Of a DNA stretch of 62,945 bases, positions 1,650 through 41,950 are shown one piece after another. Where the stretch lies: NCBI GenBank assembly GCA_018813065.1, contig JAHJCH010000337.1, positions 1 through 62,945 on the forward strand. The letters run 5' to 3'. Made by a program: the position numbers and the translations under genes. The stretch comes from Myxococcota bacterium. Its GTDB lineage: Bacteria; Myxococcota_A; Bradymonadia; UBA7976; UBA1532. The first letter of the stretch is position 1; every line of letters begins with the position of its first letter. The notes beneath the pieces are model-generated. The model saw nothing but the letters and a program-made list of their open reading frames with translations, did not search any database and had not been told where the DNA came from.

Positions 1650-1810
1650 GAGTGGCTCCGCTGGGCTGGGCGGGGCATTGAGCCATAAGCGGCCGCTCAA
1701 GCCAACTCACGCCGTGATCTCATTCGGCGTTGGGCGCGCCACGCGGGTTTTGCGTTGATCTGCTCGGGTGTTTAAACGAGTGTGTCGCCGCTTGAGCGAC
1801 TCGCCTGGAG

Positions 1811-3214
1811 GTGGATATGCGTGTTTTGTTTGTTGTTTTGACCCTCGCCTTGGGCTGCTCTGAGCCCTCAAGCGCGGCGGATGAGGACGCCGGGGCGATC
1901 CCTGCCCCGCGCGTGGACGCTCAGCTGATCGTGCGCCCAGACGCAGGCCCCCCCGGCGACGCGGGGCGGCCTGGGGATGACGCGGCGCGGCCTGGGGATG
2001 ACGCGGCTCTGCCCCTCGACGCGGCGCGGCCTGGGGATGACGCGGCGCGGCCTGGGGATGACGCGGCGCGGCCTGGGGATGACGCGGATCTGCCCCTCGA
2101 CGCCGAACGACCTGGGGATGCGGCGCGGCCTGGGGATGACGCGGCTCTGCCCCTCGACGCGGCGCGGCCCAGCGATGTCGGCGTCTCGCCCGATGCCGGG
2201 GATGATCCCTGTGAGGGCCTCACCCTCTGCGCGGAGCCCGCTTGGTCCTGTGAGGGCGATGTCGCCGTGGCCTGCTGGTACGACGACAATGATTGCTTGG
2301 TGGCCACGCGGACAGACTGCACGCTTCAACTCAATGGCTATTGCTCCACGGAGGGGGTCCTCCCCGGCTGCCGCGAGGGCGAGGGGATCTGCGGCGGGAT
2401 GGGCTTCTGCCCCGCTGAGCGCTACTGCGAGGGCGACACCCTGCACGTCTGCATCAGCGATGAGGAGGGCTGCGCCAGCACCCGCGTCGAGCAGACCTGC
2501 GCCAATGAGGGCAAGATCTGCGTCGCCACCCAGGACGGCGGCGCGGACTGCGTGTTGGCTTCCCCTGAGGCGGTGTCGGCGCAGATCGCCGCAGCGCGCG
2601 CCGCCATCGATGGCGCGGCGCGGCTGCCCCGCGCGGGGGATTGGGATATCGAGCACGCCCTCGTCACGCGGGTCAAGGCGCCCCTGGGCGCAGACGCGGG
2701 CGGCTTTATCCTTCAAGGAGAGCGCACCGGCCCCGCGATCTTCGTGCTCCATGAAGATCCCGTGGGCGTGGTGGAGGTCGGCGATGAGGTCAGCGTCTGG
2801 TTCGAGGAGGTGGATCTGGATCAAGGTCGGCGCGTCGCCAGCGGCTTGGGCTGGATCGACATCTGGAGCCAAGGCAATGACGTCAACGGCTGGGCGCAGG
2901 AGGTCAGCGGCGTTGATCTCGTCACCGCCCTCGATGACTACGAGTTTGAGCTGATCACCTTGGAGGCGCAGGTGATCGCCCCCTTCGCCTCGGCGGGGCC
3001 ACGCTTCGTTGACGCGACCTTGCGCAGCGCGGGCGTCACCGAGGGGGATCTGCGCCTGCGCGTCCCCACGACCTTATCGACGAGCCTGCTCGGGGATCGC
3101 GCGGATCTGGTCGGCTGCATCGTGCGGATCGGCCCCAGCCCCCTCTGGCGTTATCTCGATCGCGCTCAGCCCACCGCGATGGACATCAGCGAGATCGCGG
3201 TCGAGTGCCCCTGA
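1811..3214 (+). CDS. lipoprotein with DAARPGDD tandem repeats and a Cys-rich domain
   Basis: Signal peptide plus lipobox (LTLALGC), 8-aa repeats at 1958-2172, then a Cys-rich region. Strong GC3 coding bias. Confidence 0.7.
   Translation: MDMRVLFVVLTLALGCSEPSSAADEDAGAIPAPRVDAQLIVRPDAGPPGDAGRPGDDAARPGDDAALPLDAARPGDDAARPGDDAARPGDDADLPLDAERPGDAARPGDDAALPLDAARPSDVGVSPDAGDDPCEGLTLCAEPAWSCEGDVAVACWYDDNDCLVATRTDCTLQLNGYCSTEGVLPGCREGEGICGGMGFCPAERYCEGDTLHVCISDEEGCASTRVEQTCANEGKICVATQDGGADCVLASPEAVSAQIAAARAAIDGAARLPRAGDWDIEHALVTRVKAPLGADAGGFILQGERTGPAIFVLHEDPVGVVEVGDEVSVWFEEVDLDQGRRVASGLGWIDIWSQGNDVNGWAQEVSGVDLVTALDDYEFELITLEAQVIAPFASAGPRFVDATLRSAGVTEGDLRLRVPTTLSTSLLGDRADLVGCIVRIGPSPLWRYLDRAQPTAMDISEIAVECP
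1958..2172 (+). repeat. 24-bp-based in-frame repeat (DAARPGDD / DAALPL)
   Basis: gacgcggcgcggcctggggatgac reiterated with variants. Confidence 0.85.
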
Positions 3215-6484: not shown

Positions 6485-8242
6485 TTACTCCACCTCGCGC
6501 GCCACCCTCAACCCCAACTCAGGCCCCCAAGCGTGGTTGGGGAAGTCGCCGCTGCGCTCTGATACCCGCAGCTGCTTGGCGGTGCTGCGGTAGCTGCCCC
6601 CCCGCGCCACGCGCACCACCGAGACGGATTGGTAGGCCCGGCCATCCAGCGGCGTCTGGCGGTAGTCATTGGCGTAGCTGTCGGCGACCCACTCCCAGAC
6701 GTTGCCCGCCATGTCACACAGCCCTTGGCGCGTGTGGCCCTGGGCTTGGGCGCAGACCGGCGCGGGGCGCCCCTTGGGCGCGTCAAAGCGGGCGTGGACA
6801 GGCGTGGGCGGCGCGCTGCCCCAGGGGTAGCGCACAGGCAGCCCCTTGGAGCGCGCGGCGTACTCCCACTCGGCCTCGGTCAAGAGCCGCCCCCCCACCC
6901 ACTGGGCGTAGATATGCGCCTGATCCCAGTCCAGGCAGTTGATGGGGTGATCTTGGCGCCCCGCCTGGCCCCAATGGCAGGCGGGATCGTCGTCGATCGT
7001 GCGCGGGCGACGGCAGATCCCCGCCTCGACGCACTCGCGGTATTGCCCCACCGTCGTCTCCGACTTGGACACCGCGAAGGGGCTCATCTCCACGCGGTGT
7101 ATCGGCCGCTCGTCCGCCCCGCCGTCCTCGGCGCCCATCATAAAGGCGCCGCCCTCCAGCGTGATCCACTCGATGGGCTGGTGCGGGGGGTCCGGCGGCG
7201 GCGGCGGCTTGGGCGCCTCTACCCCCCGCGCGGCGGGGCTTGGCGGCAGCGCAGGCGGCTCGACGCTGGCCGTAAAGTAGATGTAGCCGCTCAGCCCCAA
7301 GGCCAAGATCAGCAGCCCCCCGATCAGCTTGAGCCACGGGCCTTGGCTGGGCGGCGCGGCCCAGCTCGTCTCCAATGACAGCGGGTCGATCTCATCCGCC
7401 GAGGCCGGCGCCAGGCAGCGCGCCAAGGCTTGACCAAAGGCCGTCATGGACTCAAAGCGCGCGGCGGGGTCTTTGTCTAAGGCCCGCAGGAGCGCGGCGC
7501 GTAAGGGCGGGGTGATCTGCGGGCAGCGCGCGCTTGGATCGGGCGGCGGCCGCTGGACGTGGCCCGCCAGCACATCGAAGTCGCTGGTCGCCTCGCCGCC
7601 GAAGGGCGGCTGGCCCGTCAACATCTCGTAGAGGATGATGGCGCAGGTGTAGAGGTCCGAGGCCGGGGTCAGATCCGCTGGCGCGGTGATCTGCTCCGGG
7701 GACATGTAGGCGGGCGTCCCAAAGAGCACGCCCGTCTGGGTGATGCGCTGCCCCCCCGTCAGCTTGGCGATGCCAAAGTCGGCGATCTTGACCTCGCCTT
7801 CCTTGGTCAAGAGCACGTTGGCGGGCTTGAGATCGCGGTGGATGACGCCCTGGGCGTGGGCGTAGGCGACCCCGTCGATGATCTGCCGAAAGTACGGCCA
7901 CGCCGCCTCAAAGGTCATGCCCTCCTCGGGGATCTGATCCTCCAAGGTGCCCCCCCCGATGTACTCCATGATGATCGCGAGGGGATCTTCGCTGATGTTC
8001 TCGACGCTGAGGATGTTGGGGTGGCGCAGCTGGGCGAGGATCTCCGCCTCTTTGATAAAGCGGGTGACGAACTCGGCGGAGGCGCGCAGGCGCGGATCGA
8101 GGATCTTGATGGCCACGCGCCGCTTGAGCCGCGCGTGCTCGGCGCGCCATACGGTGCCCATGCCGCCGCCGCCGATCTTGTTGATCAACGCATAGCCCAG
8201 GATGTTCTCGCCGCGCTTGGGCGCGTCTTCTCTCTGCATCAT
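6485..8242 (-). CDS. Ser/Thr protein kinase with a TM helix and an extracytoplasmic FGE/SUMF1-type domain
   Basis: Kinase motifs IGGGGMGTVW, VAIK, HRDLKPAN, DFG and SPE. TM segment LIGGLLILALGLSGYIYF. C-terminal FGE-like motifs ERPIHRVEMSPFAVSKSETT, WEWVADSY and RVARGGSY. Start set to the ATGATG at 8237-8242, because the longer ORF (to 8338) overlaps the upstream gene. Confidence 0.85.
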   Translation of the reverse strand: MMQREDAPKRGENILGYALINKIGGGGMGTVWRAEHARLKRRVAIKILDPRLRASAEFVTRFIKEAEILAQLRHPNILSVENISEDPLAIIMEYIGGGTLEDQIPEEGMTFEAAWPYFRQIIDGVAYAHAQGVIHRDLKPANVLLTKEGEVKIADFGIAKLTGGQRITQTGVLFGTPAYMSPEQITAPADLTPASDLYTCAIILYEMLTGQPPFGGEATSDFDVLAGHVQRPPPDPSARCPQITPPLRAALLRALDKDPAARFESMTAFGQALARCLAPASADEIDPLSLETSWAAPPSQGPWLKLIGGLLILALGLSGYIYFTASVEPPALPPSPAARGVEAPKPPPPPDPPHQPIEWITLEGGAFMMGAEDGGADERPIHRVEMSPFAVSKSETTVGQYRECVEAGICRRPRTIDDDPACHWGQAGRQDHPINCLDWDQAHIYAQWVGGRLLTEAEWEYAARSKGLPVRYPWGSAPPTPVHARFDAPKGRPAPVCAQAQGHTRQGLCDMAGNVWEWVADSYANDYRQTPLDGRAYQSVSVVRVARGGSYRSTAKQLRVSERSGDFPNHAWGPELGLRVAREVE

Positions 8243-27417: not shown

Positions 27418-28632
27418 TTACTCGGTGGGCTGATCCGCGTCGGCCTCGGCGCGGGCGGAGATCATCTCCGCGTTGGGCAGGCAGACCTTGGCCTCGACGG
27501 CGGCGGCGCCGCTCTCGCCGATAAAGCGCGGCGTGACGAGATCCAAGGTCACCTCCAAGTCCGCGCAGTCACCGTTGATCTCATGGGCCTTGCTGACGCA
27601 GATGCCTGTCGTGGGGGCCAGCGGATCTTCTGCACAGAAGGTGGGCGCCTTGCCCGCCAGGTCGGGGCAGTAGCCCTCACAGGCTTGCGTGCAGAAGCCA
27701 GCCTCATGGCAGAATTGGCCGCTGGTGCAGTCGCCCTCAGCGGCGCAAGGATCGCCGATAAAGCTCAGCGCCACGTTATTGAGCAGCGGGAAGACGGCCT
27801 TATCGCCGAGGTGGGTGAACTGATAACCCTCCTCCTTGAGCTTGAGGATCAAGGGCTCGATGGCGTCGATGGTGGTCTGGTGGATGTCATGGAAGAGGAG
27901 GACGCCGCCCTCGCGCTGGCGGACCTGGTGCATGGTCCAGTCGCTCATGCTGCCGCGGAACGCATCGGGGACGTGCTGGAACGTGCTGGCCTTGCAGTAG
28001 CCGCCGCCCGCCTTATAGCACCAGTCGGCGCTGTCGATGTGCCAGCCGGTGATCTTGTAGCCACGTTCGCGGACCTTGTCGGCGCTCATGCAGCTGGAGG
28101 AGCCATAGGGGAAGCGGAAGAAGCTGGGGGCGCCACCAGCGCCCTCGATGAGCGCCGTGACCTTGTCGATCTCGGAGATCACGCGCGCCTCATCCTGGAG
28201 CTTCATGTTGGGGTGGCTCCAGGTGTGGTTGCCTACGGTGAAGAGGGGATCGGCGACCATCTCTTCGAGCAAGGCGAGGCGGGCCTCACCCTCGACGCGG
28301 TTGACAAAGAAGGTGGCGGGCACCTCATGACGGCGGAGGATCTCGAGCAGCTGTGGCGTGGTGCTGAGGCTGGGGCCGTCGTCAAAGGTGAAGGTGACGA
28401 AGCGGTTAAAGCCGCTCTGATCAGGGACGACCACCCCGGAGCAGGTGGAGGTGTCGCCCTTGAGCTCCTCCATCTCCACGAAGCTTTGGTTCCAAAGCGC
28501 GGGATCCTCGCGAGGCGCCATCACGTCATCGGGCGACGTGGAGGCCTCCTCAGCGCAGGCCAATAAACTCAAGCTGAGCGGTAAGATGAGCGTGAGGCGG
28601 GTGAGCCTTTGCATGGCGACTCTTCCTTTCAT
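27418..28632 (-). CDS. polysaccharide deacetylase (NodB-type) lipoprotein with a Cys-rich C-terminal tail
   Basis: Lipobox LSLLAC. FTFDDGPS and HTWSHPN NodB motifs. Its ATG overlaps the TGA of the upstream gene (ATGA). Confidence 0.85.
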   Translation of the reverse strand: MKGRVAMQRLTRLTLILPLSLSLLACAEEASTSPDDVMAPREDPALWNQSFVEMEELKGDTSTCSGVVVPDQSGFNRFVTFTFDDGPSLSTTPQLLEILRRHEVPATFFVNRVEGEARLALLEEMVADPLFTVGNHTWSHPNMKLQDEARVISEIDKVTALIEGAGGAPSFFRFPYGSSSCMSADKVRERGYKITGWHIDSADWCYKAGGGYCKASTFQHVPDAFRGSMSDWTMHQVRQREGGVLLFHDIHQTTIDAIEPLILKLKEEGYQFTHLGDKAVFPLLNNVALSFIGDPCAAEGDCTSGQFCHEAGFCTQACEGYCPDLAGKAPTFCAEDPLAPTTGICVSKAHEINGDCADLEVTLDLVTPRFIGESGAAAVEAKVCLPNAEMISARAEADADQPTE

Positions 28633-30725
28633 TTTTGGGGGACATCGCCGGTTTTAGCAAAACCTGAACCTAATTTCGAGAGCGCATGACGTAGCCGCGC
28701 GCGCTGCTCAGGATCAATGGGCTGAGCGCCAAAGCGCGCGCGCTCGTATGTGTCGCAGATCTCCTCCGCCAACGAGAGCCCCGGCGCGCCTCGCGCCCTC
28801 AGCAGCGCTAAAATTTCAACGTGTGTCATATGATTTGTGATCATCAATCCCCTTTGAGCATAAAAGTCAATCATCATTTGATATAGGTCCTTTTTAATTT
28901 TTTCTTTTTTGAGCGGGTGAGGATGATCAACAGCATTAATGGCAATTATTTTCTCTTTTATCGCGATAATTATCGCGACAATTGAGATGATTAGAATCAA
29001 TATGGCCATAATTAACTTTAAATCAATATCAAGTTTCCCTATGTAGTTAATTACTGAAAGTATGTGTTGATATTTATTGTCAACGCTATTATTTTTAATA
29101 AACTCATGCCATTTTATATTAATAAAATCAATATAGTTGGATATTGGCTGATAAAATAAACCGTTTTGTGTGATATGGCTCGTCGGTGTTGGGTCAAAGA
29201 TAACCCATCCATATTTATCTGTCCATATTTCAACCCAAGAGTGTGCATTTGCCCCGCTCATAATTAAAAAATTTCCTTGAGGATTCCATCTGCCACCATA
29301 AAATCCATTTATATTTCTAGATGGAATGCCCATTTGCCTCAATAATATAATAGCAACCGTGCTAAAGTATTCACAATGACCTGATTTTGTTCGCAAGAAA
29401 AAATCATTTACATTTTTATTTTTTGAAGAGGTGCTATATTTATACTGCTTGAAAGCAGTTGATATATTATCTGTTACATCATTCAGAGTTTTAGATTGTT
29501 TTTTTATGCTTTCAGATAAAACCTGAAAATCATCGTGTATGTCTGACGGCAACTGCAAATATTTTTGTTTATTTTGTGGGAACTTAAGAGAGTTAATCGA
29601 TATATCACTTAAACCATAACCATATCCGCTATTTTTAGCAATTACTCTATATGAAAAGTGATTGTTCATATAATCTAGATCTAAACTCTCTCTAAAAAAA
29701 TCATTTTCTTGATCATAGCTAATCGTATAATAGTTCTGATCGTTTTCGTCAAAAATAACAAGTGGATCTTCAGATGGCTTAAATAATATATTTGATTTTA
29801 TGTCAATGACATCAATATCAAATTGTTCTAATTTTGTTATACCGCTGTAATCTCGCTGATTTATATGAGCATCCCGATCAGCTCGATATTGGAAGTATTT
29901 TTTTTGTGATTTATACCATGATTTCCCATCAAAAAAATCAAGACTTACTCCTTTCCAATAAGAATTATCTCGATATTCATGGTTTTTTATTACTATGACA
30001 GGGTTGTAGTTATTTTTAATTAGACCAAATTCACCAATTCTAACCTCATCAGAAAACCCAGATATCTTGTTTTGATTTATTTGACTAAGTTTGTCAAACT
30101 TATTTACTCTTGGTATAAGTGTGAATATTAAAAATGAGAGGGCAATGATCAGAAATGAAGTAAAAACACTAATTATATTAAATTTCTTGCTTACTAATTT
30201 TTTTGAATGAAGGACTTTATTAATTTTAACCCTTTTTCCTTTTAATGAATCTCTATATTTTAAAAGATAGTTATCTTCCATCTCTTTCTTAAGCTGAAAC
30301 ATGATAATACTAAAGACTGAAAACATCGAGTAAAAACTTAATGTAATGAGATATATCGCATTTGAACCCATTATGCCGGATAATCCGATATTTATTAAAG
30401 ATGATATATATAATTTTGCGTAATTAGAGTTTATTTTTTCGCTAAACGAAAATTTTAATGTCGTAATTGAGAGTATCAATATAATTACTTTTAAAAAATC
30501 AGACCTAGATAGATAAAATATGACAATTGATATAGATAAGGCCACATAAAACAACTTGAATAAATTTAAAATTGGTCTATCACTTTTTGGGTCTGAACTC
30601 CAGCTGTGAATCAATAATAAAATTGATATTAAAGGAAATATCGGTGATATCCAGCTTGTTAATGAGATTAGAGAAATCCCAACCATTAAATATGTCGATA
30701 GTTTATGCGCAATAATGAATTTCAT
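28629..30725 (-). CDS. transglutaminase TgpA-like membrane protein (DUF3488 + transglutaminase core)
   Basis: N-terminal multi-TM region. Cys-His-Asp core: SGHCEYFSTV, HSWVEIW, GWVIFDPT. AT-rich except for the last ~60 codons. Confidence 0.85.
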   Translation of the reverse strand: MKFIIAHKLSTYLMVGISLISLTSWISPIFPLISILLLIHSWSSDPKSDRPILNLFKLFYVALSISIVIFYLSRSDFLKVIILILSITTLKFSFSEKINSNYAKLYISSLINIGLSGIMGSNAIYLITLSFYSMFSVFSIIMFQLKKEMEDNYLLKYRDSLKGKRVKINKVLHSKKLVSKKFNIISVFTSFLIIALSFLIFTLIPRVNKFDKLSQINQNKISGFSDEVRIGEFGLIKNNYNPVIVIKNHEYRDNSYWKGVSLDFFDGKSWYKSQKKYFQYRADRDAHINQRDYSGITKLEQFDIDVIDIKSNILFKPSEDPLVIFDENDQNYYTISYDQENDFFRESLDLDYMNNHFSYRVIAKNSGYGYGLSDISINSLKFPQNKQKYLQLPSDIHDDFQVLSESIKKQSKTLNDVTDNISTAFKQYKYSTSSKNKNVNDFFLRTKSGHCEYFSTVAIILLRQMGIPSRNINGFYGGRWNPQGNFLIMSGANAHSWVEIWTDKYGWVIFDPTPTSHITQNGLFYQPISNYIDFINIKWHEFIKNNSVDNKYQHILSVINYIGKLDIDLKLIMAILILIISIVAIIIAIKEKIIAINAVDHPHPLKKEKIKKDLYQMMIDFYAQRGLMITNHMTHVEILALLRARGAPGLSLAEEICDTYERARFGAQPIDPEQRARLRHALSKLGSGFAKTGDVPQK

Positions 30726-31759
30726 TAATTTATCCTCAAATTTTCATCTATTAAATACATTGATTGAATATATGACCATAGATTAGAGCTGCTATGCGCA
30801 ATTAAAATATCAACATTTGCGGGTTTAATGAAACTATCTTCAATCTCTTCACTAAAACTAAGAAATGACATAAACTTTAAAAAGTCATCTTCGTGACCTT
30901 CATCAAGATGTATTGTCTCTTGGTTCATAATTAGTTTAATTTTATGTTGTTTTAGTAATTTAATGACAACGCTTGAAGCTAAGCTGATAAGATATTCAAC
31001 ATCTTCTTGATTTTCATTTAGATCCTTTATTTTTGTATTTAAAAAAACGGATAATATTTTTTTATCCTCCGTTATATGATCAACAACGTATAATTCATTT
31101 TTTTTCGCAGATATTTTCCAATTTATTAGATGAAGCGAATCATTTTCCCTATATTTTCTAATTAAAAATGGATCATTTTCTTTGATTTTATTTTTATTGA
31201 TTAGTTGTTCAAAGAACAAATCACTTAAATCGATCAGTCTTGGGAAGACAATTAAATCTGATCCTTGGCTAAACCTGTAAGTCTTCAAAAAGAAGGAAAA
31301 TGGAAATCGAGTGCCAATTTTAATGTATTTATATTTGTATAAGCCTCTTTTGGGGATTTCAAATCGATAATTTGTCTCTTGGTTTGTTTTAGGCGGTATC
31401 TTGAGGAAATAACATCTCTTGGCGATATGGCTTTGCTCAATCCCGTCCTCTACCTGCACGCTGAACGAGGGCATCCAACGCTTCTCATTGCGCAGATCAA
31501 TGGAGACGAGGAAGGGCGTCGCCGCGAAGACTTGACTGGGGAGGCGCCGCGTGGCCTTGAGGCCCTTGAGGGTCCACTCTGAGAGCAGCCCGCTGACGAT
31601 GATCATCGCGAGGAGATGACACAGCAGCAGGTGAAGCACGTCGTTGCCCGTGCTCACCGCGCCGAAGCCAATGGTGAGGGTGATGACGCCGAGGTAGCGC
31701 CCCTCTTGGGTGAGGTGCAGGCTGCGGCGTGGGCGATCAGCGCGCGAGCGCCGCCTCAG
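30725..31759 (-). CDS. DUF58-family protein (5' end unresolved)
   Basis: Two N-terminal TM helices, then YRENDSLHLINWKISAKKNELYVVDH, which is typical of DUF58. The track ORF extends to 31984 but overlaps rpsN. Between the rpsN stop and the first TM helix I found only in-frame CTG codons (31759, 31720). Confidence 0.65.
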   Translation of the reverse strand: MRRRSRADRPRRSLHLTQEGRYLGVITLTIGFGAVSTGNDVLHLLLCHLLAMIIVSGLLSEWTLKGLKATRRLPSQVFAATPFLVSIDLRNEKRWMPSFSVQVEDGIEQSHIAKRCYFLKIPPKTNQETNYRFEIPKRGLYKYKYIKIGTRFPFSFFLKTYRFSQGSDLIVFPRLIDLSDLFFEQLINKNKIKENDPFLIRKYRENDSLHLINWKISAKKNELYVVDHITEDKKILSVFLNTKIKDLNENQEDVEYLISLASSVVIKLLKQHKIKLIMNQETIHLDEGHEDDFLKFMSFLSFSEEIEDSFIKPANVDILIAHSSSNLWSYIQSMYLIDENLRIN

Positions 31760-31790
31760 CCCAGGCCATGAGCCGCGGTGAGGTGGACCC

Positions 31791-32096
31791 TCACCAGCTG
31801 GCCTTGACGACCCCAGGGAGGTTGCCCTTGAGCGCCTCTTGACGCAGGGAGATGCGTGAGAGCCCAAACTTGCGGTAGTAGCCGCGCGCGCGGCCAGTAA
31901 GGTGACAACGATTGACGATCCGCGTGGCGCTGGCGTCACGCGGCATCTTCGCCAGCTTGGCCTGAGCCTCCCACTTCTCCTCAAGGGTCGTCTCAGGGTT
32001 CTTGATGACCGCGATCAGCGCTTGACGGTGCTCGGCGTGCTTAGCGGTGAGCGCGCGGCGCTGCTTGTTCTTCGCGATGCTGCTCTTCTTAGCCAT
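31791..32096 (-). CDS. rpsN: 30S ribosomal protein S14 (long, non-zinc form)
   Basis: MAKKSSIAKNKQRR...NRCHLTGRARGYYRKFGLSRISLRQEALKGNLPGVVKASW is a full-length S14 signature. Confidence 0.93.
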   Translation of the reverse strand: MAKKSSIAKNKQRRALTAKHAEHRQALIAVIKNPETTLEEKWEAQAKLAKMPRDASATRIVNRCHLTGRARGYYRKFGLSRISLRQEALKGNLPGVVKASW

Positions 32097-33398: not shown

Positions 33399-34877
33399 AT
33401 GGAGGCTCGCTCTCGTCTTATGCGCTCAATCTGCCAAAGCCAAACGCTCTGCCTCCTCCTCGGCGCCTCGCTCTGGGCGTGTCAAGAGGCGCCCGATCAG
33501 CGCCTTGAGATCGAGGGGGAGGAGATCGACGCCAGCGCGCGCCTTGATCTCGGGGCCAGGCTTGACGCCGCGCTCATGGACGCCGCCTTGGACACGCTGC
33601 TCATCCCCGACACAGCTGTGATCCCCGACGCGTTGCTTATCTCCGACACGGCTGAGATCCCCGACGCGGCTGAGATCCCCGACGCGGCTGAGATCCCCGA
33701 CGCGGCTGAGATCGCTGAGGAGGTCTGTGATGGGATCGACAATGATTTAGATGGGCTGATCGATGAGGCGCTCGCCAACATCTGCGGGGGCTGCGGTCCA
33801 ATCCCAGAGGGCGGCTGTCAGAGCTGGCGGATCAGCTTGCCAGAGGGGCTCATCCAGCCCAGCCGGGTCCTCAGCCTCCAAGGGCGCGTGCTGCGTGAGG
33901 CGGCCTTGGACATCGAGGGCGCGCGCTGCACGCTCTTGGAGATCGGCGCCGATGGCGGAGGCGCGCACCTCGGCGTGGTGGATATCCAAAGCCCCCAGGC
34001 TGCGCTTCAGCTGGTGCCCTATGTCGATGACGTCGAGGGGGTGATCTATACCCCGTCGCCTGACACGCCGCTGCGGCTCTATGAGGGCGACGCGCCGCTG
34101 CGGATCTGGGCGGGCGGCGGCGCGGTCATCCCCGCTTTTGAGGTCAACACGCGCGGGCCAGGCACGATGGCCGACGTGGAGGGGCTGGAGGGCGTGATGG
34201 ACAAGGCCACGGGGGCCATGCGCGGGGAGACGCCCCTGAGCTGGCGCCCCGGTGAGGGCGCGCTGACGCTCTACATCGGCGGCAGCCGTCCCCTCTTCTC
34301 CCGGCCCGAGTATCAGTCCATCGCGCACTATCAGCTCAACGCGCGCTTGGTCGATGATGGCCGCTGCGCCTTGCCTGATCTCTTCGACGGGGGGCTGCTC
34401 GACAGCTCAGTCTGGGTCTATCTCCAGCGCGCCCGCCTCCAGCCGCTTGTCTTTGGGCCACACGCGGCGCTGATCGAGACGAGCAGCCGCGTCGAGGCGC
34501 GCCGCGCCGGGGTCTTGGAGGGCGATGAGCCCTCGCCCGTGCGCTTTGAGGCGCCCTCGCCCGTCGAGCCGCAGATCACGCCCGGCGCGCCGCTGCGGGT
34601 GGCCTGGGCGCCGCTGCCCGAGGGGCCTGGGCCGCTGCGGGTGAGCTTGACGTTGCATGATCGCGCCGCTGGCGTGAGCCGTCAGCTGGCCTGTGAGGTG
34701 GTGGACCCCAGCCGTGGCGCCTTGATCTTGCCCGAGGAGATGACCACAGCGTGGCCGACAGGGGAGGGCGACACTCGCCAGATCTCCCTGAGCTGGGTGA
34801 CACACAGCGCGACGCTGCCCGCCCCCGATGAGGGCACCTTGACCCGCTCGATCTCAACCCTGCTGCGCCTGCCTTAA
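33399..34877 (+). CDS. secreted/lipoprotein with AEIPDA repeats and one MopE-like motif
   Basis: Signal with LWAC lipobox, 18-bp repeats at 33615-33719, and a CDGIDNDLDGLIDE motif. Confidence 0.6.
   Translation: MEARSRLMRSICQSQTLCLLLGASLWACQEAPDQRLEIEGEEIDASARLDLGARLDAALMDAALDTLLIPDTAVIPDALLISDTAEIPDAAEIPDAAEIPDAAEIAEEVCDGIDNDLDGLIDEALANICGGCGPIPEGGCQSWRISLPEGLIQPSRVLSLQGRVLREAALDIEGARCTLLEIGADGGGAHLGVVDIQSPQAALQLVPYVDDVEGVIYTPSPDTPLRLYEGDAPLRIWAGGGAVIPAFEVNTRGPGTMADVEGLEGVMDKATGAMRGETPLSWRPGEGALTLYIGGSRPLFSRPEYQSIAHYQLNARLVDDGRCALPDLFDGGLLDSSVWVYLQRARLQPLVFGPHAALIETSSRVEARRAGVLEGDEPSPVRFEAPSPVEPQITPGAPLRVAWAPLPEGPGPLRVSLTLHDRAAGVSRQLACEVVDPSRGALILPEEMTTAWPTGEGDTRQISLSWVTHSATLPAPDEGTLTRSISTLLRLP
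33615..33719 (+). repeat. 18-bp in-frame repeat (AEIPDA), ~6 units
   Basis: gctgagatccccgacgcg occurs 3 times perfectly (33651-33704), flanked by degenerate units. Confidence 0.85.
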
Positions 34878-34879
34878 AC

Positions 34880-36520
34880 CTAAAACAGCCGCCACCACGG
34901 GCGATTGGGATCTGGTTGGGCCTCTTGGGTCGGGGATGCCTCCTCAACCTCCTCGATCTCTTGGGCCGCCTCGGGCGGCGTGGGCGCGTCCTCGGGCGTG
35001 GGCGCGTCCTCGGGCGTGGCCGCGATCAAGGGCGCGGAGGGCTTGCTCAGGCTGAGGGGCGCCTCGTCGAGGGCCGCGCGCCACGGATAGCGCGCTTGTA
35101 ACGCGCGGACCTCCGCCCGCAGCGGCGCGCCCTTGGCGGGATCGACCATGTAGACGAAGTCGGCGAAGCCCATCATCGAGGCGAAGAGATCCTCGCCCTG
35201 CCCCCAGCGCTTGCCCTTGGGGCCGTCAAGGCGCACTTGGTGTAAGAGCGCGCGGAACCGACGCAGCGCGCGGCGCGGCACGCCGAGCTGATCATTGACG
35301 ATCAACCCCGTCACCTCTTGGCGCCGCCCCCTGCGCAGGATACGGGTCTTGTCCTCGTTGATCCGCAGCCCCTCGTCCTCAATGATGCGCCGCGCGACCC
35401 AGAGCAGCTGGTTGAGATCCTGTCCCTCTCCAGAGAAGGTCAGATCGTCGGCGTAGCGGGTATAGGTCCAGCCATGCTGCGCGGCGTAGCCGCTGAGCCG
35501 GGCGTCGAGGCGACGGCAGATGAGGTTGGTGATGCCCGGGCTGGAGGGCGCGCCCTGCGGGAGCCGCCGCTCACCGCCGCGCACATACCAGGTCCGCCCG
35601 TCCAGCTCCACCGCCTCGATGTCGGCCTCCGTCGTCAAGAGCGCCAAGATCACGGCCACGCTGGGGCTGTAGCCCATGCTGGCGAACAGCCCCCGCGTCC
35701 GGCTGAAGGTGATCGTGGGGAAGAAGTCGGCGAGGTCCATGTTGATGACGACGGCTTGGCCCACATGCGGCGCGGCGTTGCTGAGGATGCCTCGCCCCGC
35801 GCGGAAGCCGTGGGCGGCGTCGTGGAGCCCGATGTCATCGATTTTGTTGATGATCTCGTCGAGTATCCAGCGCTGCACGCGCTTGAGCCGGGGCATGGGC
35901 GCGGAGATCGTGCGCAGGCCGCCGGTCTTCTTGGCGATCCGAAATTGACGGTAGTGACTCTGGCTGGAGACGACGCGCTGGAAGGCGAGGAAGCGCAGCT
36001 CGCCGAGGCTGATGCCCAGGGCGCGGGCCAGATCAGGTGGGCTTTTGAGCTGGGGCAAGGCGGAGGCGCTGAGCCCCTCCAGCCGCTCGCGATAGTCCTC
36101 TGGCTCGGGCTCGGCGCCTAACCAAGCGTCCATGTTGTTGGCGGTCTTGCTCAGATCAAAGGAGACGCCCTCGCCGAGGTAGAGGATCTCCTTGGCTTTG
36201 CGCTGGCGCCACGCCTCGGCGCGCGCGCGCTTGGCCTCGATGCGCGCCTGCTTGTTCTCCTCGCGCTTGCGCCGCGACTCGGCCATGCGCTCCCTGCGGA
36301 TGGCCTTGAGCACCGCCTCGCGGTTCTGTGTCCGCGCCGCTTCGCTTTGCAGCGCGCTGAGCCGCTTGAGGATCTCGCCGCGCCGCTTGTGCGCCCCCCC
36401 TGGATCGACGGGCCGATCTCCCCAGAAGCCGAGGCGGACCATCTCCTCAAGGATAAACTCCGCCTTGGAGGTCTGGCTGATGATGTCGTAGAGCTCTTGT
36501 CTCGTGCGGGGCTGGGTCAT
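34880..36520 (-). CDS. retron-type reverse transcriptase with N-terminal (~160 aa) and C-terminal (~75 aa) extensions
   Basis: LARALGISLGELRFL...YRQFRIAKKTGGLRTISAP, ILSNAAPH (NAXXH), NMDLADFFPTI, LPQGAPSSP, RYADDLTFSG (YADD) and RQEVTGLIVN (VTG). NAXXH and VTG are retron-RT hallmarks. Confidence 0.85.
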   Translation of the reverse strand: MTQPRTRQELYDIISQTSKAEFILEEMVRLGFWGDRPVDPGGAHKRRGEILKRLSALQSEAARTQNREAVLKAIRRERMAESRRKREENKQARIEAKRARAEAWRQRKAKEILYLGEGVSFDLSKTANNMDAWLGAEPEPEDYRERLEGLSASALPQLKSPPDLARALGISLGELRFLAFQRVVSSQSHYRQFRIAKKTGGLRTISAPMPRLKRVQRWILDEIINKIDDIGLHDAAHGFRAGRGILSNAAPHVGQAVVINMDLADFFPTITFSRTRGLFASMGYSPSVAVILALLTTEADIEAVELDGRTWYVRGGERRLPQGAPSSPGITNLICRRLDARLSGYAAQHGWTYTRYADDLTFSGEGQDLNQLLWVARRIIEDEGLRINEDKTRILRRGRRQEVTGLIVNDQLGVPRRALRRFRALLHQVRLDGPKGKRWGQGEDLFASMMGFADFVYMVDPAKGAPLRAEVRALQARYPWRAALDEAPLSLSKPSAPLIAATPEDAPTPEDAPTPPEAAQEIEEVEEASPTQEAQPDPNRPWWRLF

Positions 36521-36537
36521 ATGCGTGCCTTAAAAGG

Positions 36538-36771
36538 CCAGGGCGCGGCCGAAAACTTCGAAGTTCTCGTCGGAGACTGGACTGTCTCAACTCAATTAAG
36601 GCCCCTATGGGCTAGTCCGTAATTGTTGTCGGCAGACAACGCACCGCCAAATACGGACTAGCCCATACTGGGGCCTACCAGTGAAGAGCAGGCCAGTGAC
36701 GCATGCTCGGTCAAGGTGCATGGACGGCGATCCACCGCCCCACTGCAAGCTTTGCCTCGACCGCACCCTGG
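36538..36771 (-). ncRNA. candidate retron msr-msd non-coding RNA
   Basis: A1 (36771->36758, CCAGGGUGCGGUCG) pairs with a2 (36551->36538, CGGCCGCGCCCUGG) as 12 WC plus 2 GU pairs. Enclosed are a 76-nt hairpin (36600-36675) with 16/16 perfect core arms and two smaller hairpins. The element lies directly upstream of the RT, as in retrons. Confidence 0.55.
36600..36675. repeat. long inverted repeat / hairpin (putative msd stem)
   Basis: GGCCCC-TATGGGCTAGTCCGTA (36600-36621) pairs with TACGGACTAGCCCATA-CT-GGGGCC (36652-36675). Nested inside is GTTGTC-GGCA-GACAAC (36625-36640). Confidence 0.9.
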
Positions 36772-36780
36772 ACGCCTGGT

Positions 36781-38445
36781 CTAATGCCGTCGGTGATTGC
36801 TCTGACCCTCGGAGATCCTCAACGCGAGGATGTGCTCACAGGGGCCTTTGTAGAGCCGGTTATGACGGAACCAAGCGCAGTCGCACTGGGCCTCTTTGAT
36901 ACGCTCATCGGCGTCAATCGTCAAGGAGATATAGTGCGTCTGTTGATCAGCTTGGATCGCCCCGTCCAAATGTAAATGACCTTCGCTGTCTTGGCGCGCC
37001 TCGATCAGCGTCACTTGGCGCCGCATCACAAAGCGGTTGGCCGTGGCCTCTCGCTCGTTGGCGAAGCGCAGCGCGCTGAGCGGCAGCGGCTCACGGCTCA
37101 GCTCACGGGCGCGGTAGACGCCCTGCTCCAGATCGTAGATGGCCCGCCCCGCTTGGGTGAGCGTGCCCAGCGCCCCGAGCACCACCGCGCGATCTAAGCC
37201 CAGCTTGCGGGCGAGATCATCGGGCGCCGCGCGCCAGTCGGCCTTGAGCGCCTCGAAGACCGACGCGCTGGTCAAGGCGTCCACCTCGGCGCGCGGCGCC
37301 ATCAAGTCAAAGTTGCCCGCCGTGGACCAGTCATTGGCCGTCCAGCCGCTGAGCCCCAGCGTGAAGGCCATGTCGCCGAGGTGGGCGATGTAGAACGAGG
37401 GCAGCCCCGTCCCCAAGAGGTAGACCGTGAAGTAATCGGCGATGGGGATCAGCCGCTCCAAGATGTGCAGCCGCCGCCGCCCCCAGACGCGGATCTCTTG
37501 GGGCGTGTCCCCCTCGTAGATCGAGCGTGGGCAGTCGATCTTGATGTTCCAAGGCTCCATCAAGATCTGAACGGGGCGCCCCGGCTTGAGGATGTAGCGC
37601 ATGGAGCGCGGGCCATGCAGCTCCTGCTTTTGCCGCAGCACAAAGCAGATATTGTGGATGTCCATCGGGTGCAGCTTGATCGCCGTCGCCGGCAGCGACA
37701 TGGCAGAGCTGACCTGAAGGAACCCACGCACCCAGGAGTCAGGGAGGTCAATCTTGACCTCTTTAAAGGCGTCTGAGAAGGACGCCTCGTCTATGGTCTG
37801 AACTTGAAACCCAGATGGGTCAATCGTGAAGTCTGTGGGCTTATAGCTGCGGATCTTTTGAAACTCATTGTAAAGCTCCGCGCTGTAATCGATGTTGGTC
37901 GTCCCACACTCAAATTCCTTGACATCCTTGAAGACATCATAGTTGGCGCTGAGGCGACCATAGCTGGATTCATCCTGGCTAAAGCACTCAAAGAAGACCT
38001 GGTCTGGGTGTACGGTGATCACCGGGTCTAAGACAAACCAAGCGTTATAGTCTCGCTTGTAGAGGTAGTCAAAGTAGCGACGCTTGGCCTTGTTGAAGGG
38101 GACACTGTGCTTTTGCTGCTCTAGGTCGATCTTCCTCAGCTCCTCATGAAGCTGGGCCATCTCGCGCTTGGCGCGGCCATGCTCGGCGGCGATGCGCTCT
38201 AAGGCAAACTGCTCCTGCGTCGCCAGCCAGGCCTTGTACTCCTCGCGATCCTTGGGCTTAAACCGTAGATCCGAGACGACGACGCTGTGCAGGGCGCTGA
38301 TCGCCTCGCGGAAGGGGATGTTTTTGCGCAGCAGGCCCCGAAAATAGGTCGGATCTCGCTGGGTGTCCGGCGAGAAGCGCATGGAGGTCTGATCAGGGCG
38401 GCTCTCGATGGCGGTGTTGCCGCTGTATCTATATTGAAACTCCAC
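36781..38445 (-). CDS. SWIM zinc-finger domain protein
   Basis: C-terminal CDCAWFRHNRLYKGPCEHILAL matches the CxC-x(n)-CxH SWIM signature. GTG start at 38445 preceded by GGAGGTGA. Overlaps the upstream gene by 17 nt. Confidence 0.8.
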   Translation of the reverse strand: MEFQYRYSGNTAIESRPDQTSMRFSPDTQRDPTYFRGLLRKNIPFREAISALHSVVVSDLRFKPKDREEYKAWLATQEQFALERIAAEHGRAKREMAQLHEELRKIDLEQQKHSVPFNKAKRRYFDYLYKRDYNAWFVLDPVITVHPDQVFFECFSQDESSYGRLSANYDVFKDVKEFECGTTNIDYSAELYNEFQKIRSYKPTDFTIDPSGFQVQTIDEASFSDAFKEVKIDLPDSWVRGFLQVSSAMSLPATAIKLHPMDIHNICFVLRQKQELHGPRSMRYILKPGRPVQILMEPWNIKIDCPRSIYEGDTPQEIRVWGRRRLHILERLIPIADYFTVYLLGTGLPSFYIAHLGDMAFTLGLSGWTANDWSTAGNFDLMAPRAEVDALTSASVFEALKADWRAAPDDLARKLGLDRAVVLGALGTLTQAGRAIYDLEQGVYRARELSREPLPLSALRFANEREATANRFVMRRQVTLIEARQDSEGHLHLDGAIQADQQTHYISLTIDADERIKEAQCDCAWFRHNRLYKGPCEHILALRISEGQSNHRRH

Positions 38446-41400
38446 CCCTCACCTCCGCAGCTTGGACCTTGATGGGCAGCGAGACGTCGGGCCAGTCTCG
38501 ATGAATTTGAAGCATGATCTCGATGGCGGCGGCGCGGTCGCGGATGGCGATGGTGGCCGACTGGCGTGTCAGGATCTCGGCGATGATCTCGGCGGCCTCG
38601 CGGCTGGCGCGGGCCTCGGCGGCGAAGAAGCGCAGCACACGCTGCTTGGTCAGCCCGCCTTGGTTGACCCGCGACAGCGCGGCGATGAAGTAGAGCTTGA
38701 GCTGCGCCAGCCGCTGGGGGGCGTCGTGGGCGTAGCGCTCCAGGTAGTGGGTGACGAAGCCCTGCATGGCGGCGGAGGGGTGCTCGCTGAGCTTGAGCAG
38801 GTACTCGGGGCCAAAGGCCTCGCGGAAGAAGCGGGTCAGCAAGCCCTGCCCAAAGCGCTGCACGTCCGGCCGCACGCTGTCGCAGAGGCTGACGAGCACG
38901 CTGGGCGGGAAGTCGTCGGCCTCAAAGGCGTCGCCACCAAACAGCTCAAAGGCGAACTGGCGGGTGTCCTCCCAGGCCGCGTCGAGGATGCGCACCGCCT
39001 CGACGATCTGGGCCTTGAGCCGAGGGATGTCCGCGCGGTACATGGCCCACGCGGCCCGGCGCACGGCGGCGATCTCATGGGTGCCCAGCCGGGCGATCTC
39101 GCTGACGCTGAGGTCATCGGGGCGCAGCGCGGTGGGCAGGAGCAGCCCGCCCAGCTCTTGCGCCGGGCCTCGACTGGACTGCAAGAGCCGCATGATCACG
39201 CTCTTGGGCACGCCGTCCATCACCGCGCGCAGATCCTCGCTGAGCACCCGCACGAGATGCGCCCCCGCGCCGTCGGGGAGCTTGTGGCGCAGGAGCGCGC
39301 GGACCAGCTCCACCGCCAAGGCCTCGGCCTGCGTGGGCGCGGCGGCGACGCGCTGCACCACCAGCCGCGCGCTCTCGCGCAGCTGGGCCTCCGAGTGGAT
39401 GGAGAGGGCCACGATCAAGCTCATGTAGCCGGCGACCACCGCGTCGGGCATCCGCGCCATCAGCTGCACCCCCACGGCGCGCGCCGTGGAGAACCGAGAG
39501 TCAAGGAGCGCGACGAGGAGCGCCTCGGGCGTGGCCTCGCCGTAGCCCGCGCGGGCGAGGAGGATCTCCCCGGCCAGCACATGGGCGCTCTCCTCCTGGC
39601 GCTTGAGGAGATCGAGGATCACCGCCTCGCTGATCCGCCGCAGCTGGGCGGAGAACAGCCGCTTGAGCGTGGCGCTGATGTCATCCTTGCGGGCTTGATC
39701 GGCGTCGGCGTCGAGCAGCCGGGCGATGAGCCGGGTGACGATGAGCTGGGCCGTCTCCTCGCTGAGCGTCACCGTCTGGAGATAGCCGCGCCCAAAGCGG
39801 CGGGCCTCCTGCTCAGGGCCGCAGAGCAGATCGGCGAGGAAGAGGGCGTCTTGGGTGAACACCGCGCGGGCGGCCTCAAGCCAATCACGCGCTTGGTCAC
39901 GGGCGGCCTTGAGCGGGCTGTGGATGGCCGCCAAGGCCAAGACGACGCTGGGCGAGGCCGGGTTAAAGCGGCTCGTCGCCAGCTCCAAGCCCAGCTGGTT
40001 GGTGATCTCGTAGGGCGCGCCCAGGAGCAGGGCCAAGAGCTGATCGTCGAAGCTGGAGAATTGGCCTCGCAGCGCGCGTAGGGTGCGCGCGGCGAAGTCA
40101 TGGACCGGCGCGCAGCGGCTCTCGACGAGGAGGTGGATGAGCCCCTCGGGGCGGGCGGCCCACAGGCGCGGGTAAGCGCCCTCATGGCTCACGATCGGCG
40201 CCGCGCTCGGGCGACGATCATCGCCGCGCCCTCTCGGCCGCGCCGCGCTGGGCGTGTTGCTCAAGGAGAAGCGCAGGTGTGCCCGATCAGCGCGCACCCG
40301 CGCGCTGTGGCGATAGAGGATCTGGTTGAAGGCCCAATGGCCGAGGAAGGGCGCCAGCAGGTTGTGCCCCTCGCGGTTGATCCGACCGTAGGCGTCCGTG
40401 TCCTTGAAGCGCAGGAGGTAGCCGACGGCCATGTTGACGTAGTGGGGATCGTCGCGCTCGCCGATCCGCTCCAGAGTCCGCCAAGCGCGGCGGCGCAGAT
40501 ATTGGCGCGTCGCCGAGCTGTAGGCCGCCTTGGCGTTGGGCTGGCCCTGGGCCGCGCCCACCTCGACGCGGTGACCGCCGATGTAGGCGATCTTGCCCCA
40601 GTAAGGCCGCTGGAAATAGGCGCGGGTGACCTCGAAGCGGTGGTTGAGGATGCCCCAAAGCTGCGCATCCTCACGCAGCTCCGCCGACTTAAGCAGGCCA
40701 CGCAACCCCTTGAATGTGTTGGGCTTTAACGGCAGGGTCGCCGCCAGATCCAGGACCGCTGGGCGGGCGGGGCCGTCGATGAGATAGAGGCGGCGGAGCA
40801 GGGTGTGGCTGTCCTTGGAGGGCGCCTCAAAGGCGGCCAGCGCCGCCGCCTTGATGGCCTGCGGCGCGCCCTCGACCAGCGCCTGTCGCAGCGGCGGCGG
40901 CAGCGCGTCGCGCTCGGCGGCGAGGAAGGCTTCGAGCTTGCGCGGCCCATAGAGCGCGCGCAGGGCCTCGCCGGCCACGCGGCGGACATGCTCAAGGGTC
41001 TGCGGGCGCTGGTAGATGTGCTCGACGTCGGGGATCACGGCGGGCTCACCGCAGCGGGCCAGCGCGTAGAGCGAGGCGTAGTCGCGCATGGCCGAGCCGT
41101 GGCCGAGGTGGGCGACAATCAGCGGCGCGGCGGCCCGCAGCCGCAGCTCACCCGCCCGCCAGATGGCGCGATCCAAGGGCCAGCTCGAGGTGACGCTCGT
41201 CGGAGGCGCGCTTGGCGCGCCGCGTCGCCTGCGTCGAGGCGCGCGAGGGATATCCCCCAGCCGCAGCCGCGCCAAGATGGCCCCCTCGCGATCCGCCGCG
41301 CGGTGAACCACTTCATAACCAGACAAGATCGCCGCTGGGGCGACCTCATGGCTGGACAAGGGGGCCTCGCGGGCAGCCTCGCGGGCGGCGCGATGCTGAG

Positions 41401-41770
41401 GCGGCGTCCCGACAGAGCGCCGATCAACCACCCGGATCGGTGAAGGCGCGGCGCCTTGGCCCTTGAGGGTGTAGCCCTTGGCGAGCTGGGTGTTGAGCAG
41501 CGCCTCGAAGATAAACTCGGCGCGTTGTCGTGGCACCGGCGCGAGGGTCTTGGAGCCGTCCTTGAGGACCGCCCCCTCTCGGCCATAGCGGAAGTTGACG
41601 ACGTAGGCGCCTGGGCCGACCTCGCAGAGATCGATCTCGTAGACCTTTCGCCGCGACCCCAGCGCGTAGATAAGCTCGCTTTGTCTGATCACTCTCACTC
41701 TGTCACCACTCTCTGAGCCGCGGCGGGTTGCCTTAGTCAGACCACCATTAGATGCCAATGTCAAGGGCAT
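38429..41770 (-). CDS. WGR-domain protein with ~1000-aa Leu/Ala-rich helical-repeat (HEAT/ARM-like) region
   Basis: N-terminus ...RKVYEIDLCEVGPGAYVVNFRYGREGAVLKDGSKT...AEFIFEALLNTQLAKGYT fits the WGR pattern. ATG at 41768-41770 (the track uses a TTG at 41779). Confidence 0.8.
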   Translation of the reverse strand: MPLTLASNGGLTKATRRGSESGDRVRVIRQSELIYALGSRRKVYEIDLCEVGPGAYVVNFRYGREGAVLKDGSKTLAPVPRQRAEFIFEALLNTQLAKGYTLKGQGAAPSPIRVVDRRSVGTPPQHRAAREAAREAPLSSHEVAPAAILSGYEVVHRAADREGAILARLRLGDIPRAPRRRRRGAPSAPPTSVTSSWPLDRAIWRAGELRLRAAAPLIVAHLGHGSAMRDYASLYALARCGEPAVIPDVEHIYQRPQTLEHVRRVAGEALRALYGPRKLEAFLAAERDALPPPLRQALVEGAPQAIKAAALAAFEAPSKDSHTLLRRLYLIDGPARPAVLDLAATLPLKPNTFKGLRGLLKSAELREDAQLWGILNHRFEVTRAYFQRPYWGKIAYIGGHRVEVGAAQGQPNAKAAYSSATRQYLRRRAWRTLERIGERDDPHYVNMAVGYLLRFKDTDAYGRINREGHNLLAPFLGHWAFNQILYRHSARVRADRAHLRFSLSNTPSAARPRGRGDDRRPSAAPIVSHEGAYPRLWAARPEGLIHLLVESRCAPVHDFAARTLRALRGQFSSFDDQLLALLLGAPYEITNQLGLELATSRFNPASPSVVLALAAIHSPLKAARDQARDWLEAARAVFTQDALFLADLLCGPEQEARRFGRGYLQTVTLSEETAQLIVTRLIARLLDADADQARKDDISATLKRLFSAQLRRISEAVILDLLKRQEESAHVLAGEILLARAGYGEATPEALLVALLDSRFSTARAVGVQLMARMPDAVVAGYMSLIVALSIHSEAQLRESARLVVQRVAAAPTQAEALAVELVRALLRHKLPDGAGAHLVRVLSEDLRAVMDGVPKSVIMRLLQSSRGPAQELGGLLLPTALRPDDLSVSEIARLGTHEIAAVRRAAWAMYRADIPRLKAQIVEAVRILDAAWEDTRQFAFELFGGDAFEADDFPPSVLVSLCDSVRPDVQRFGQGLLTRFFREAFGPEYLLKLSEHPSAAMQGFVTHYLERYAHDAPQRLAQLKLYFIAALSRVNQGGLTKQRVLRFFAAEARASREAAEIIAEILTRQSATIAIRDRAAAIEIMLQIHRDWPDVSLPIKVQAAEVRGGVSI

Positions 41771-41950
41771 TATCGACAAGCATTTCGCGGTTTTTTTTCG
41801 TTAGAAATCAACAGATTAGAGTGAGTGTACCTGGGCGCGGGCGCGGGCTCCGCCGCGCGGCGAGTGCATCCCCCCCTCAGCTCCGCTAGGCTGTCCACCA
41901 AGGCTATATTTTTTTGATTTTCAAGGGATCGAGACGCTGGAGGGCGAGAG

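Follow-up and report, generated by a model that had tools for sequence, protein, structure and literature searches.

Type XIII retrons include the first retrons found in myxobacteria, which were also the first retrons ever described. Here, a locus of this kind is reported from a 62,945-nucleotide (nt) stretch of DNA of a Myxococcota bacterium (GenBank assembly GCA_018813065.1, contig JAHJCH010000337.1); the whole stretch is referred to as the window, and all positions follow its numbering. Type XIII was defined by Mestre et al. 2020 (PMC7736814, Table 1) as the combination of a reverse transcriptase (RT) of clade 10 with a cluster-114 protein, which combines a DEDE motif and a winged helix with a SWIM finger of the form CxCx12CxH at its C-terminus, and a cluster-216 protein, in which a WGR-like domain is followed by HEAT/ARM repeats. 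Mx162, Mx65, Sa163 and Ne144 were given in the same study as its experimentally validated members. In a 2026 survey, type XIII was third in abundance among the retron groups, with 143 candidates, and taxonomically the broadest.

The locus in the window was identified as an intact chromosomal type XIII retron of the class of Mx162 and Mx65 (Myxococcus), Sa163 (Stigmatella) and Ne144 (Nannocystis), a reading to which we give a probability of about 93%. The type was assigned with the type-specific profiles of PADLOC together with the published type definition, and the RT clade was taken from the profile match. Each of the three proteins matched a type XIII profile (RT_XIII, E-value 3.6e-173; SWIM_XIII, 2e-234; WGR_XIII, 1.2e-298), and the locus agreed with the definition part for part. 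The list of open reading frames (ORFs), the fold of the intergenic gap and the profile matches placed four elements head to tail, all on the minus strand (Table 1).

The same four elements had been recognised in a preliminary description of the DNA, where they were proposed to form an unclassified retron type with a new WGR + SWIM effector pair. This proposal leaned on a list of effector classes in which no WGR/SWIM pair occurred, and it would fit the lack of an NCBIfam model for either partner protein and the fact that Pfam names the SWIM finger only. Type XIII is simply missing from that list. The PADLOC search suggested there returned type XIII for each of the three proteins, with matches at 1e-173 to 1e-298; type XIII had been defined in 2020 with exactly these parts (PMC7736814), and it is the type that the 2026 survey ranked third. 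From the PADLOC matches and the 2020 definition it follows that an existing type already covers the architecture, an outcome that the preliminary description had itself allowed for, and that the architecture is therefore real but not new. The claim of an unclassified type is thus refuted, and we regard it as extremely improbable. The other half of the proposal, a retron with an intergenic msr/msd, was borne out by the profiles, the RNA homology, the covariation and the a1/a2 repeat.

Table 1. Elements of the type XIII retron locus and their positions in the window.
Element	Positions	Strand	Description
WGR-like + HEAT/ARM-repeat gene (cluster 216; WGR_XIII)	38429..41698	-	probable GTG start, 1089 amino acids (aa)
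SWIM partner gene (cluster 114; SWIM_XIII)	36781..38445	-	554 aa, GTG start behind GGAGGTGA
Retron non-coding RNA (ncRNA; msr-msd)	36538..36771	-	234 nt, first base of a1 to last base of a2
a1 arm (CCAGGGUGCGGUCGA)	36757..36771	-	pairs with 36538-36552
msr core + 5' flank of msd stem	36678..36759	-	CUUGCA ... GGNCGGYG-loop-CGCCGNCC ... CAUGCGUCACUGGCC.GCUCUUCACUG
Long variable hairpin, msd centre, template of the stem-loop of the multicopy single-stranded DNA (msDNA)	36600..36675	-	minimum free energy structure, compensatory changes
a2 arm (UCGGCCGCGCCCUGG)	36538..36552	-	pairs with a1
Retron RT, clade 10/type XIII	34880..36520	-	546 aa, ATG start; PADLOC RT_XIII, Pfam RVT_1, motifs

The RT matched RT_XIII with 574.9 bits over residues 2-511, the next model being RT_other with 340 bits, and it matched Pfam RVT_1 at 4.8e-24. 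The NAXXH, YADD and VTG motifs of the preliminary description were confirmed as NAAPH at residue 248, RYADD at 355-359 and VTG at 403-405. An N-terminal extension of ~150 aa, typical of the family, was present, and in the family alignment both the N-terminus and the C-terminal WW tail were conserved. Identity to the nearest database proteins was 50-57%. In the PDB sequence search the best match was the RT of retron Ec86 (8.5e-43), with Ec67 at 1.8e-39, and the nearest solved relatives were all retron RTs. Other kinds of RT were considered as alternatives, namely that of a group II intron, of a defence-associated RT (DRT, or UG) element or of a diversity-generating retroelement (DGR). The group II intron model (group_II_RT_mat) scored 63.3 bits against a cut-off of 300, and Drt2 and Drt3a scored 37.1 and 20.2 bits against cut-offs of 390 and 200, respectively. 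No intron RNA was detected with Rfam, either at the locus or across the whole window.

Between the SWIM and RT genes, the 260-nt gap with retron-like RNA structure was confirmed at 36521-36780, and a1 began close to the SWIM stop as had been described, at 36771, the tenth base past it. The gap RNA folded at -130.9 kcal/mol (z = -6.64), and none of 200 shuffled sequences folded as well. The a1 and a2 arms pair over 15 base pairs (bp) including 2 G-U pairs, or over 17 bp if two further G-U pairs are added. Homologues of this RNA lie upstream of about 40 related RTs, with invariant blocks made up of CUUGCA, the GGNCGGYG/CGCCGNCC stem-loop, CAUGCGUCACUGGCC.GCUCUUCACUG and UUGAGUUGAGAC.GUCCAGUC; these blocks flank a hairpin that is kept in form and completely different in sequence between loci. 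When the full 240-nt ncRNA was aligned with MAFFT and analysed with RNAalifold, the conserved blocks were aligned and the variable hairpin and a1/a2 were not. The covariance model (R1) was limited to the conserved 83-nt core, for which mean column identity in the core alignment (A4) was 80%, and a1/a2 was treated sequence by sequence.

A single copy of this model was found in the window, at 36678-36759 of the minus strand (82.4 bits, E-value 1.5e-19), and 45 further copies, spread over 39 related loci, shared the strand of the RT in every case; the msr-core copies that were checked preceded the RT match by a few hundred nt. Compensatory changes were observed in five of the eight pairs of the msr stem, where 99.7% of the cells were paired, compared with 34-63% in slid controls. 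Double compensatory substitutions relative to the ncRNA of L090, the only close relative found (87% identity), numbered four within the msd hairpin and two within a1/a2. An a1/a2 repeat was present in all 37 related ncRNA copies scanned, with 8-26 bp (10-26 in 36 of them), unrelated sequences and a span of about 200-290 nt. The a1/a2 repeat, the msr stem-loop and the msd hairpin of a type XIII ncRNA were thus all found in the window, as judged on the homologous RNAs of type XIII-like RT loci, and by its sequence and pairing the gap RNA is a retron msr-msd. A search for an Rfam family corresponding to the type XIII ncRNA gave no match at gathering level, at the locus or in the whole window. The only Rfam match was a spurious one to mir-549 on the msd hairpin, on both strands, with 29.5 bits against a gathering score of 93, and it marks a perfect hairpin within msd.

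Mx162 comprises a 162-nt DNA and a 77-nt RNA, with the branching G at position 20 of the RNA. By analogy with Mx162, the probable branching G in the window is the G at 36756 or 36755 (G36756 or G36755), directly on the 3' side of a1. The msDNA is predicted to be about 150 nt long, with a template of about 36553-36706; the corresponding plus-strand sequence (36553-36706), folded as DNA, formed a long imperfect hairpin (z = -7.65). Co-transcription of the ncRNA with the SWIM gene is plausible. The spacing from the SWIM stop to a1 was 9 nt in the window and in L090, and 18 nt in Archangium. A promoter and terminator scan gave no sigma-70-like promoter to either side of the locus and, for terminators, unconvincing sites.

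In several related type XIII loci the msr core occurs twice in tandem upstream of a single RT, whereas the window carries one copy. These are L009 (6470-6552 and 6720-6802), L001 (2686-2768 and 4137-4218), L047 (6384-6464 and 6686-6768), L053 (1559-1641 and 1889-1971), L018 (4090-4174 and 4328-4412) and L088 (9337-9420 and 9670-9753). In the three that were checked (L009, L001 and L047), each msr copy had its own a1/a2 repeat, and in the tandem-copy loci one RT may serve two different msDNAs.

The association of the two partner genes with the RT was analysed in related loci. A scan of a genome collection with the single RT protein gave 3 loci, one of them useful; a metagenome scan with the RT alignment gave 80 loci, which were then searched by tblastn with the three proteins of the window. 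Where at least 2 kb of sequence upstream of the RT was available (50 related loci), a SWIM homologue was found in 44, in 43 of them directly upstream and on the same strand, and a WGR/HEAT homologue was detectable in 23 of the 33 loci with at least 6 kb upstream. In the reverse test, in which loci were chosen by the SWIM protein alone, the set of HEAT/WGR gene, SWIM gene, ncRNA and RT was present in three of four. In Archangium gephyra the locus follows the order of the window: genes for proteins of 1024 and 547 aa, then a gap of 280 nt and the RT. The layout of L090, a 4.2-kb metagenome contig whose SWIM protein is 85% identical, is the same as that of the window. Because the gene order and the homologous RNA recur in dozens of unrelated contigs, the linkage lies far beyond chance, and the RT has the WGR-like/HEAT and SWIM genes as its specific partners.

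Chance adjacency of the RT to an unrelated WGR/SWIM pair had been raised in the preliminary description, together with a synteny comparison by which it could be judged. In its favour, a SWIM homologue of 65% identity stands alone in L087 (Lusitaniella), where neither RT nor HEAT gene nor ncRNA lies within 7 kb of it, and the SWIM gene is missing in 6 of the 50 related RT loci. Against it stand the 44 loci in which the gene is present and the retron-specific ncRNA lying between the SWIM and RT genes, and the group II intron and Drt2 scores (63 bits against 300 and 37 against 390) and the Rfam result given above speak in the same way against another kind of RT. The synteny counts and the ncRNA refute this reading, and the probability is close to nil both for chance adjacency and for an RT from another retroelement such as a group II intron, a DRT/UG element or a DGR.

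The L087 gene (7001-8647, Lusitaniella coriacea) is a lone gene of SWIM_XIII type adjoined by a fragment of an MT-A70 methyltransferase; either members of the SWIM family can occur apart from retrons, or this locus has been split. The RT_XIII-like loci without an upstream SWIM homologue are L015, L016, L019, L053, L057 and L081. In L015 (6014-8392) a 303-aa ORF lies 12 nt from the RT and the msr core was not detected, and in L057 a 1158-aa ORF precedes the RT. Such loci may represent variant architectures.

Compared with the named type XIII retrons Retron-Mxa1 (Mx162), Retron-Mxa2 (Mx65), Retron-Sau1 (Sa163) and Retron-Nex2 (Ne144), the window locus has the three protein kinds in common and is a separate, divergent member, as compared by the published definition and the profiles. 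Its order of HEAT gene, SWIM gene, ncRNA and RT is that of the majority of the related loci, its ncRNA is homologous to those of the Archangium gephyra locus and about 40 others, and its high GC content and native composition fit vertical inheritance. The msd hairpin sequence, in contrast, is unique to the lineage of the window among the related type XIII loci. Set against the E. coli retrons Ec86/Eco1 (type II-A), Ec78/Eco7 (type I-A) and Ec67/Eco2 (type I-C), the tripartite organisation of RT, ncRNA and accessory proteins is common to both, the RT core is homologous and the logic of the RNA is alike, with a1/a2, msr stem-loops and an msd hairpin. The window locus differs from them in the ~150-aa N-terminal extension of its RT, in a longer ncRNA (234 nt) with a much longer msd stem, and in the position of its partner genes upstream of the ncRNA. 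Its accessory proteins are unrelated to theirs, with no ATPase, HNH, Toprim or nucleoside deoxyribosyltransferase-like domain.

The first gene of the locus had been described as encoding a 1113-aa WGR protein. The gene proved real, and its start was revised. The ORF extends over 38429-41779, with a TTG at 41779 and an ATG at 41770 that would give 1113 aa. A start at GTG 41698 aligned with the beginnings of 11 orthologues, with Met in 10 of the 11, and the GC content at third codon positions (GC3) was 0.50 in the 24 codons of 41699-41770, compared with 0.88 in the rest of the gene. On account of the orthologue starts and the low GC3 of the extra codons, the protein is probably 1089 aa rather than 1113 aa long. 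It matched WGR_XIII over residues 29-1110 and HEAT-ARM_XIII at 6e-34, and a weak match to Pfam HEAT_2 was also obtained. The WGR label held in part. The N-terminus of the window protein scored 14.1 bits with Pfam WGR, under the cut-off of 22; among the 12 aligned N-termini (window and 11 orthologues), 10 matched Pfam WGR at E <= 1, the best at 1.1e-08, and alignment of the N-terminal profile with a bona fide WGR domain by hhalign gave a probability of 69% (E-value 4.4e-05). On these profile comparisons, 'WGR-like', the term of the literature, is the right description of the domain. A WGR-like N-terminus, HEAT/ARM repeats and a gene position just upstream of the SWIM gene, the features of a cluster-216 protein, were thus all found.

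Two related loci carry additional genes. In Archangium gephyra (L004), the product of an extra gene directly upstream of the type XIII retron (1588-3012) joins a bona fide Pfam WGR domain to a beta-propeller, and this neighbourhood thus holds a second WGR protein. In L088, a small gene of the PDDEXK_3 nuclease family (6507-6887, 126 aa) lies between the WGR/HEAT and SWIM genes of the type XIII locus, which belongs to a 5.75-Mb genome.

The 17-nt overlap of the SWIM gene with the gene upstream was confirmed, the WGR/HEAT stop being located at 38429-38431, and so was the GTG start behind GGAGGTGA. In addition to SWIM_XIII, the protein matched Pfam SWIM (8.2e-06), with a finger of the form CxCx12CxH (CDCx12CEH) at residues 521-538. 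In an alignment of 58 sequences, D140, D148, E153 and D186 were invariant and E229 was nearly invariant; the strict spacing of the DEDE motif to its last E is displaced by a 5-residue insertion. The acidic motif, a winged-helix-like segment and the SWIM finger of a cluster-114 protein were thus present. The three proteins differed in their rates of evolution. The SWIM protein was 60-65% identical across cyanobacteria, Planctomycetota, Verrucomicrobiota and Myxococcota, the RT was about 50% identical, and the WGR/HEAT protein was 25-40% identical to those of the related loci (best tblastn segment).

The SWIM protein was modelled twice with AlphaFold, from 32 sequences and then from 58 sequences of two clades. 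With 32 sequences the predicted local distance difference test score (pLDDT) was 64, and the best 50 Foldseek matches in the PDB were all sliding clamps. With 58 sequences (AF2), the pLDDT was 75.7 and the predicted template modelling score 0.75, and 413 PDB matches were obtained at E <= 1e-3, of which the best 50 were all PCNA (best E-value 3.1e-08). The template modelling score (TM-score) normalised to PCNA was 0.51-0.68 among these best 50 of 413, and 0.19 for one 758-residue single-chain PCNA-DNA entry. The model shows a two-domain fold of repeated beta-alpha-beta-beta-beta units over ~residues 10-365, cleanest at 254-365, with a long helical hairpin inserted at 67-131, followed by a winged-helix-like segment (390-446) and the SWIM finger region (478-552); D140, D148, E153 and D186 belong to the first of the two clamp-like domains. 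A PCNA-like sliding-clamp fold, a resemblance of structure only, is thus predicted for the N-terminal two-thirds of the protein. In the predicted model the two-domain beta-alpha-beta-beta-beta fold resembles that of PCNA and other sliding clamps, from which the protein is set apart by the helical insertion at 67-131, by the fusion to a winged helix and a SWIM finger, and by the lack of sequence similarity, PDB profile searches with the SWIM protein having given nothing relevant.

D140, D148, E153 and D186 make up the DEDE motif, which had earlier given rise to the proposal of a transposase-derived nuclease. Among the best 50 of the 413 Foldseek matches in the PDB, no RNase H-like or transposase fold was found. 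Tentatively, and on the strength of the model, the type XIII partner may be a PCNA-like clamp with a winged helix and a SWIM finger rather than a transposase-derived nuclease; it would grip or encircle the msDNA stem, while the WGR-like domain would read its end or branch. We hold this to be possible and rather doubtful. No report of a clamp fold in retron partners was found in the literature searched, the coverage of which was incomplete, and no relevant literature was found there on retrons and PCNA, or on SWIM/WGR/YehQ/MolR.

A mechanism can be proposed in which the RT and RNA steps are drawn from established retron biology and the steps of the partner proteins are proposals, as is the sensing of msDNA by WGR and SWIM suggested in the preliminary description. 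The a1/a2 duplex would offer the RT the 2'-OH of the G that directly follows a1 on its 3' side (about 36756), and the RT would copy msd from the base adjoining a2 back towards msr. Trimming of the template by RNase H would leave a branched RNA-DNA msDNA with roughly 150 nt of DNA in a long imperfect hairpin, and this msDNA would be kept in a complex together with the RT and both partner proteins. Binding of the duplex stem of the msDNA would fall to the SWIM protein, with its PCNA-like clamp module, winged helix and Zn finger, and the WGR-like domain of the HEAT scaffold would read the branch or a DNA end. An invader that disturbs the msDNA or the complex would then release an effector activity, which may depend on D140/D148/E153/D186 of the SWIM protein. 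Mx162 msDNA is reported to occur as a protein complex (Viswanathan et al. 1989, reference 42 in PMC8989520), which is consistent with the proposed holding of the msDNA.

None of the evidence contradicts the identification as type XIII. Several points nevertheless weigh against the reading or the mechanism attached to it. No toxin or enzyme domain was recognised in either partner by Pfam, NCBIfam, PADLOC or the PDB sequence search, and the last of these gave no solved relative of either protein. The production of msDNA, its branching G and its length, and the co-transcription with the SWIM gene are all points that we infer. The PCNA-like fold is a prediction, with TM-scores of 0.5-0.7 at a sequence identity of about 10%. 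No published function or defence phenotype of type XIII was found in the literature searched, and type XIII is not mentioned in the retron census paper. To our knowledge, no experiment so far has shown what type XIII does.

The surroundings of the locus weigh in the same direction. No PADLOC defence match was found among ten ORFs between 17.9 and 61 kb, both flanking genes included. A radical-SAM-like gene and a TRAP transporter lie upstream, and an unknown gene and a gene for a helix-turn-helix protein lie downstream. The convergent gene described 2 nt from the RT stop was confirmed as an ORF at 33399-34877, which is coding-like (GC3 0.84). GC and GC3 were native in all three retron genes, in a genome with a GC content of about 0.68-0.70. 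This GC content and the nearest relatives of the RT and the SWIM protein agree with an origin in Myxococcota; the best matches are distributed over several phyla. The native composition and the non-defence neighbours fit the vertical inheritance reported for type XIII, for which a possible domestication for a non-defence function has been considered (Mestre et al. 2020, PMC7736814).

The locus may accordingly be read as a domesticated type XIII retron, whose msDNA-protein complex would serve the cell itself, for example in DNA metabolism, in the stress response or in development, and not phage defence. This would agree with the native composition of the three genes and with surroundings that hold transporter and cell-wall genes and, in the ORFs scanned, no defence genes; with the correlation of 0.78 with the host 16S reported for type XIII in the study in which domestication was raised explicitly (Mestre et al. 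2020, PMC7736814); with the conservation of the SWIM protein, which at 60-65% across four phyla is unusually high and unlike that expected of a fast-evolving immune effector; and with the predicted PCNA-like fold, which would belong to the machinery of DNA replication and repair. It is countered by the fast divergence of the msd hairpin and of a1/a2, by the patchy distribution of type XIII over many phyla in the 2026 survey, and by the lack of a known cellular phenotype; in the general literature, moreover, every retron type tested for function is reported to act in phage defence. Domestication is judged unlikely, if a good deal less so than the alternatives of an unclassified type or of chance adjacency.

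Elsewhere in the window, a strongly low-GC island was observed at 28629-31984 on the minus strand, in a genome of about 0.69 GC. It comprises a TgpA-like transglutaminase gene (28629-30725; GC 0.32, GC3 0.30) and an ORF at 30725-31984 (GC 0.44) with no Pfam match, and it looks like foreign DNA or an assembly join.

As a claim of discovery the locus carries no weight, the architecture having been catalogued in 2020 and being found automatically by PADLOC. Few retron groups are as abundant or as broad taxonomically as type XIII, which is mechanistically unexplored and for whose partner proteins PDB searches gave no solved structure. The locus is a divergent example, clean and intact, that could be used for its study and compared with a close relative. 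The predicted PCNA-like fold provides a concrete hypothesis for how the msDNA may be held. If the clamp interpretation is true, type XIII would sense msDNA by means of a DNA clamp, a mechanism that would set it apart from the retrons so far solved, with a possible tie to replication or repair instead of classical abortive infection.

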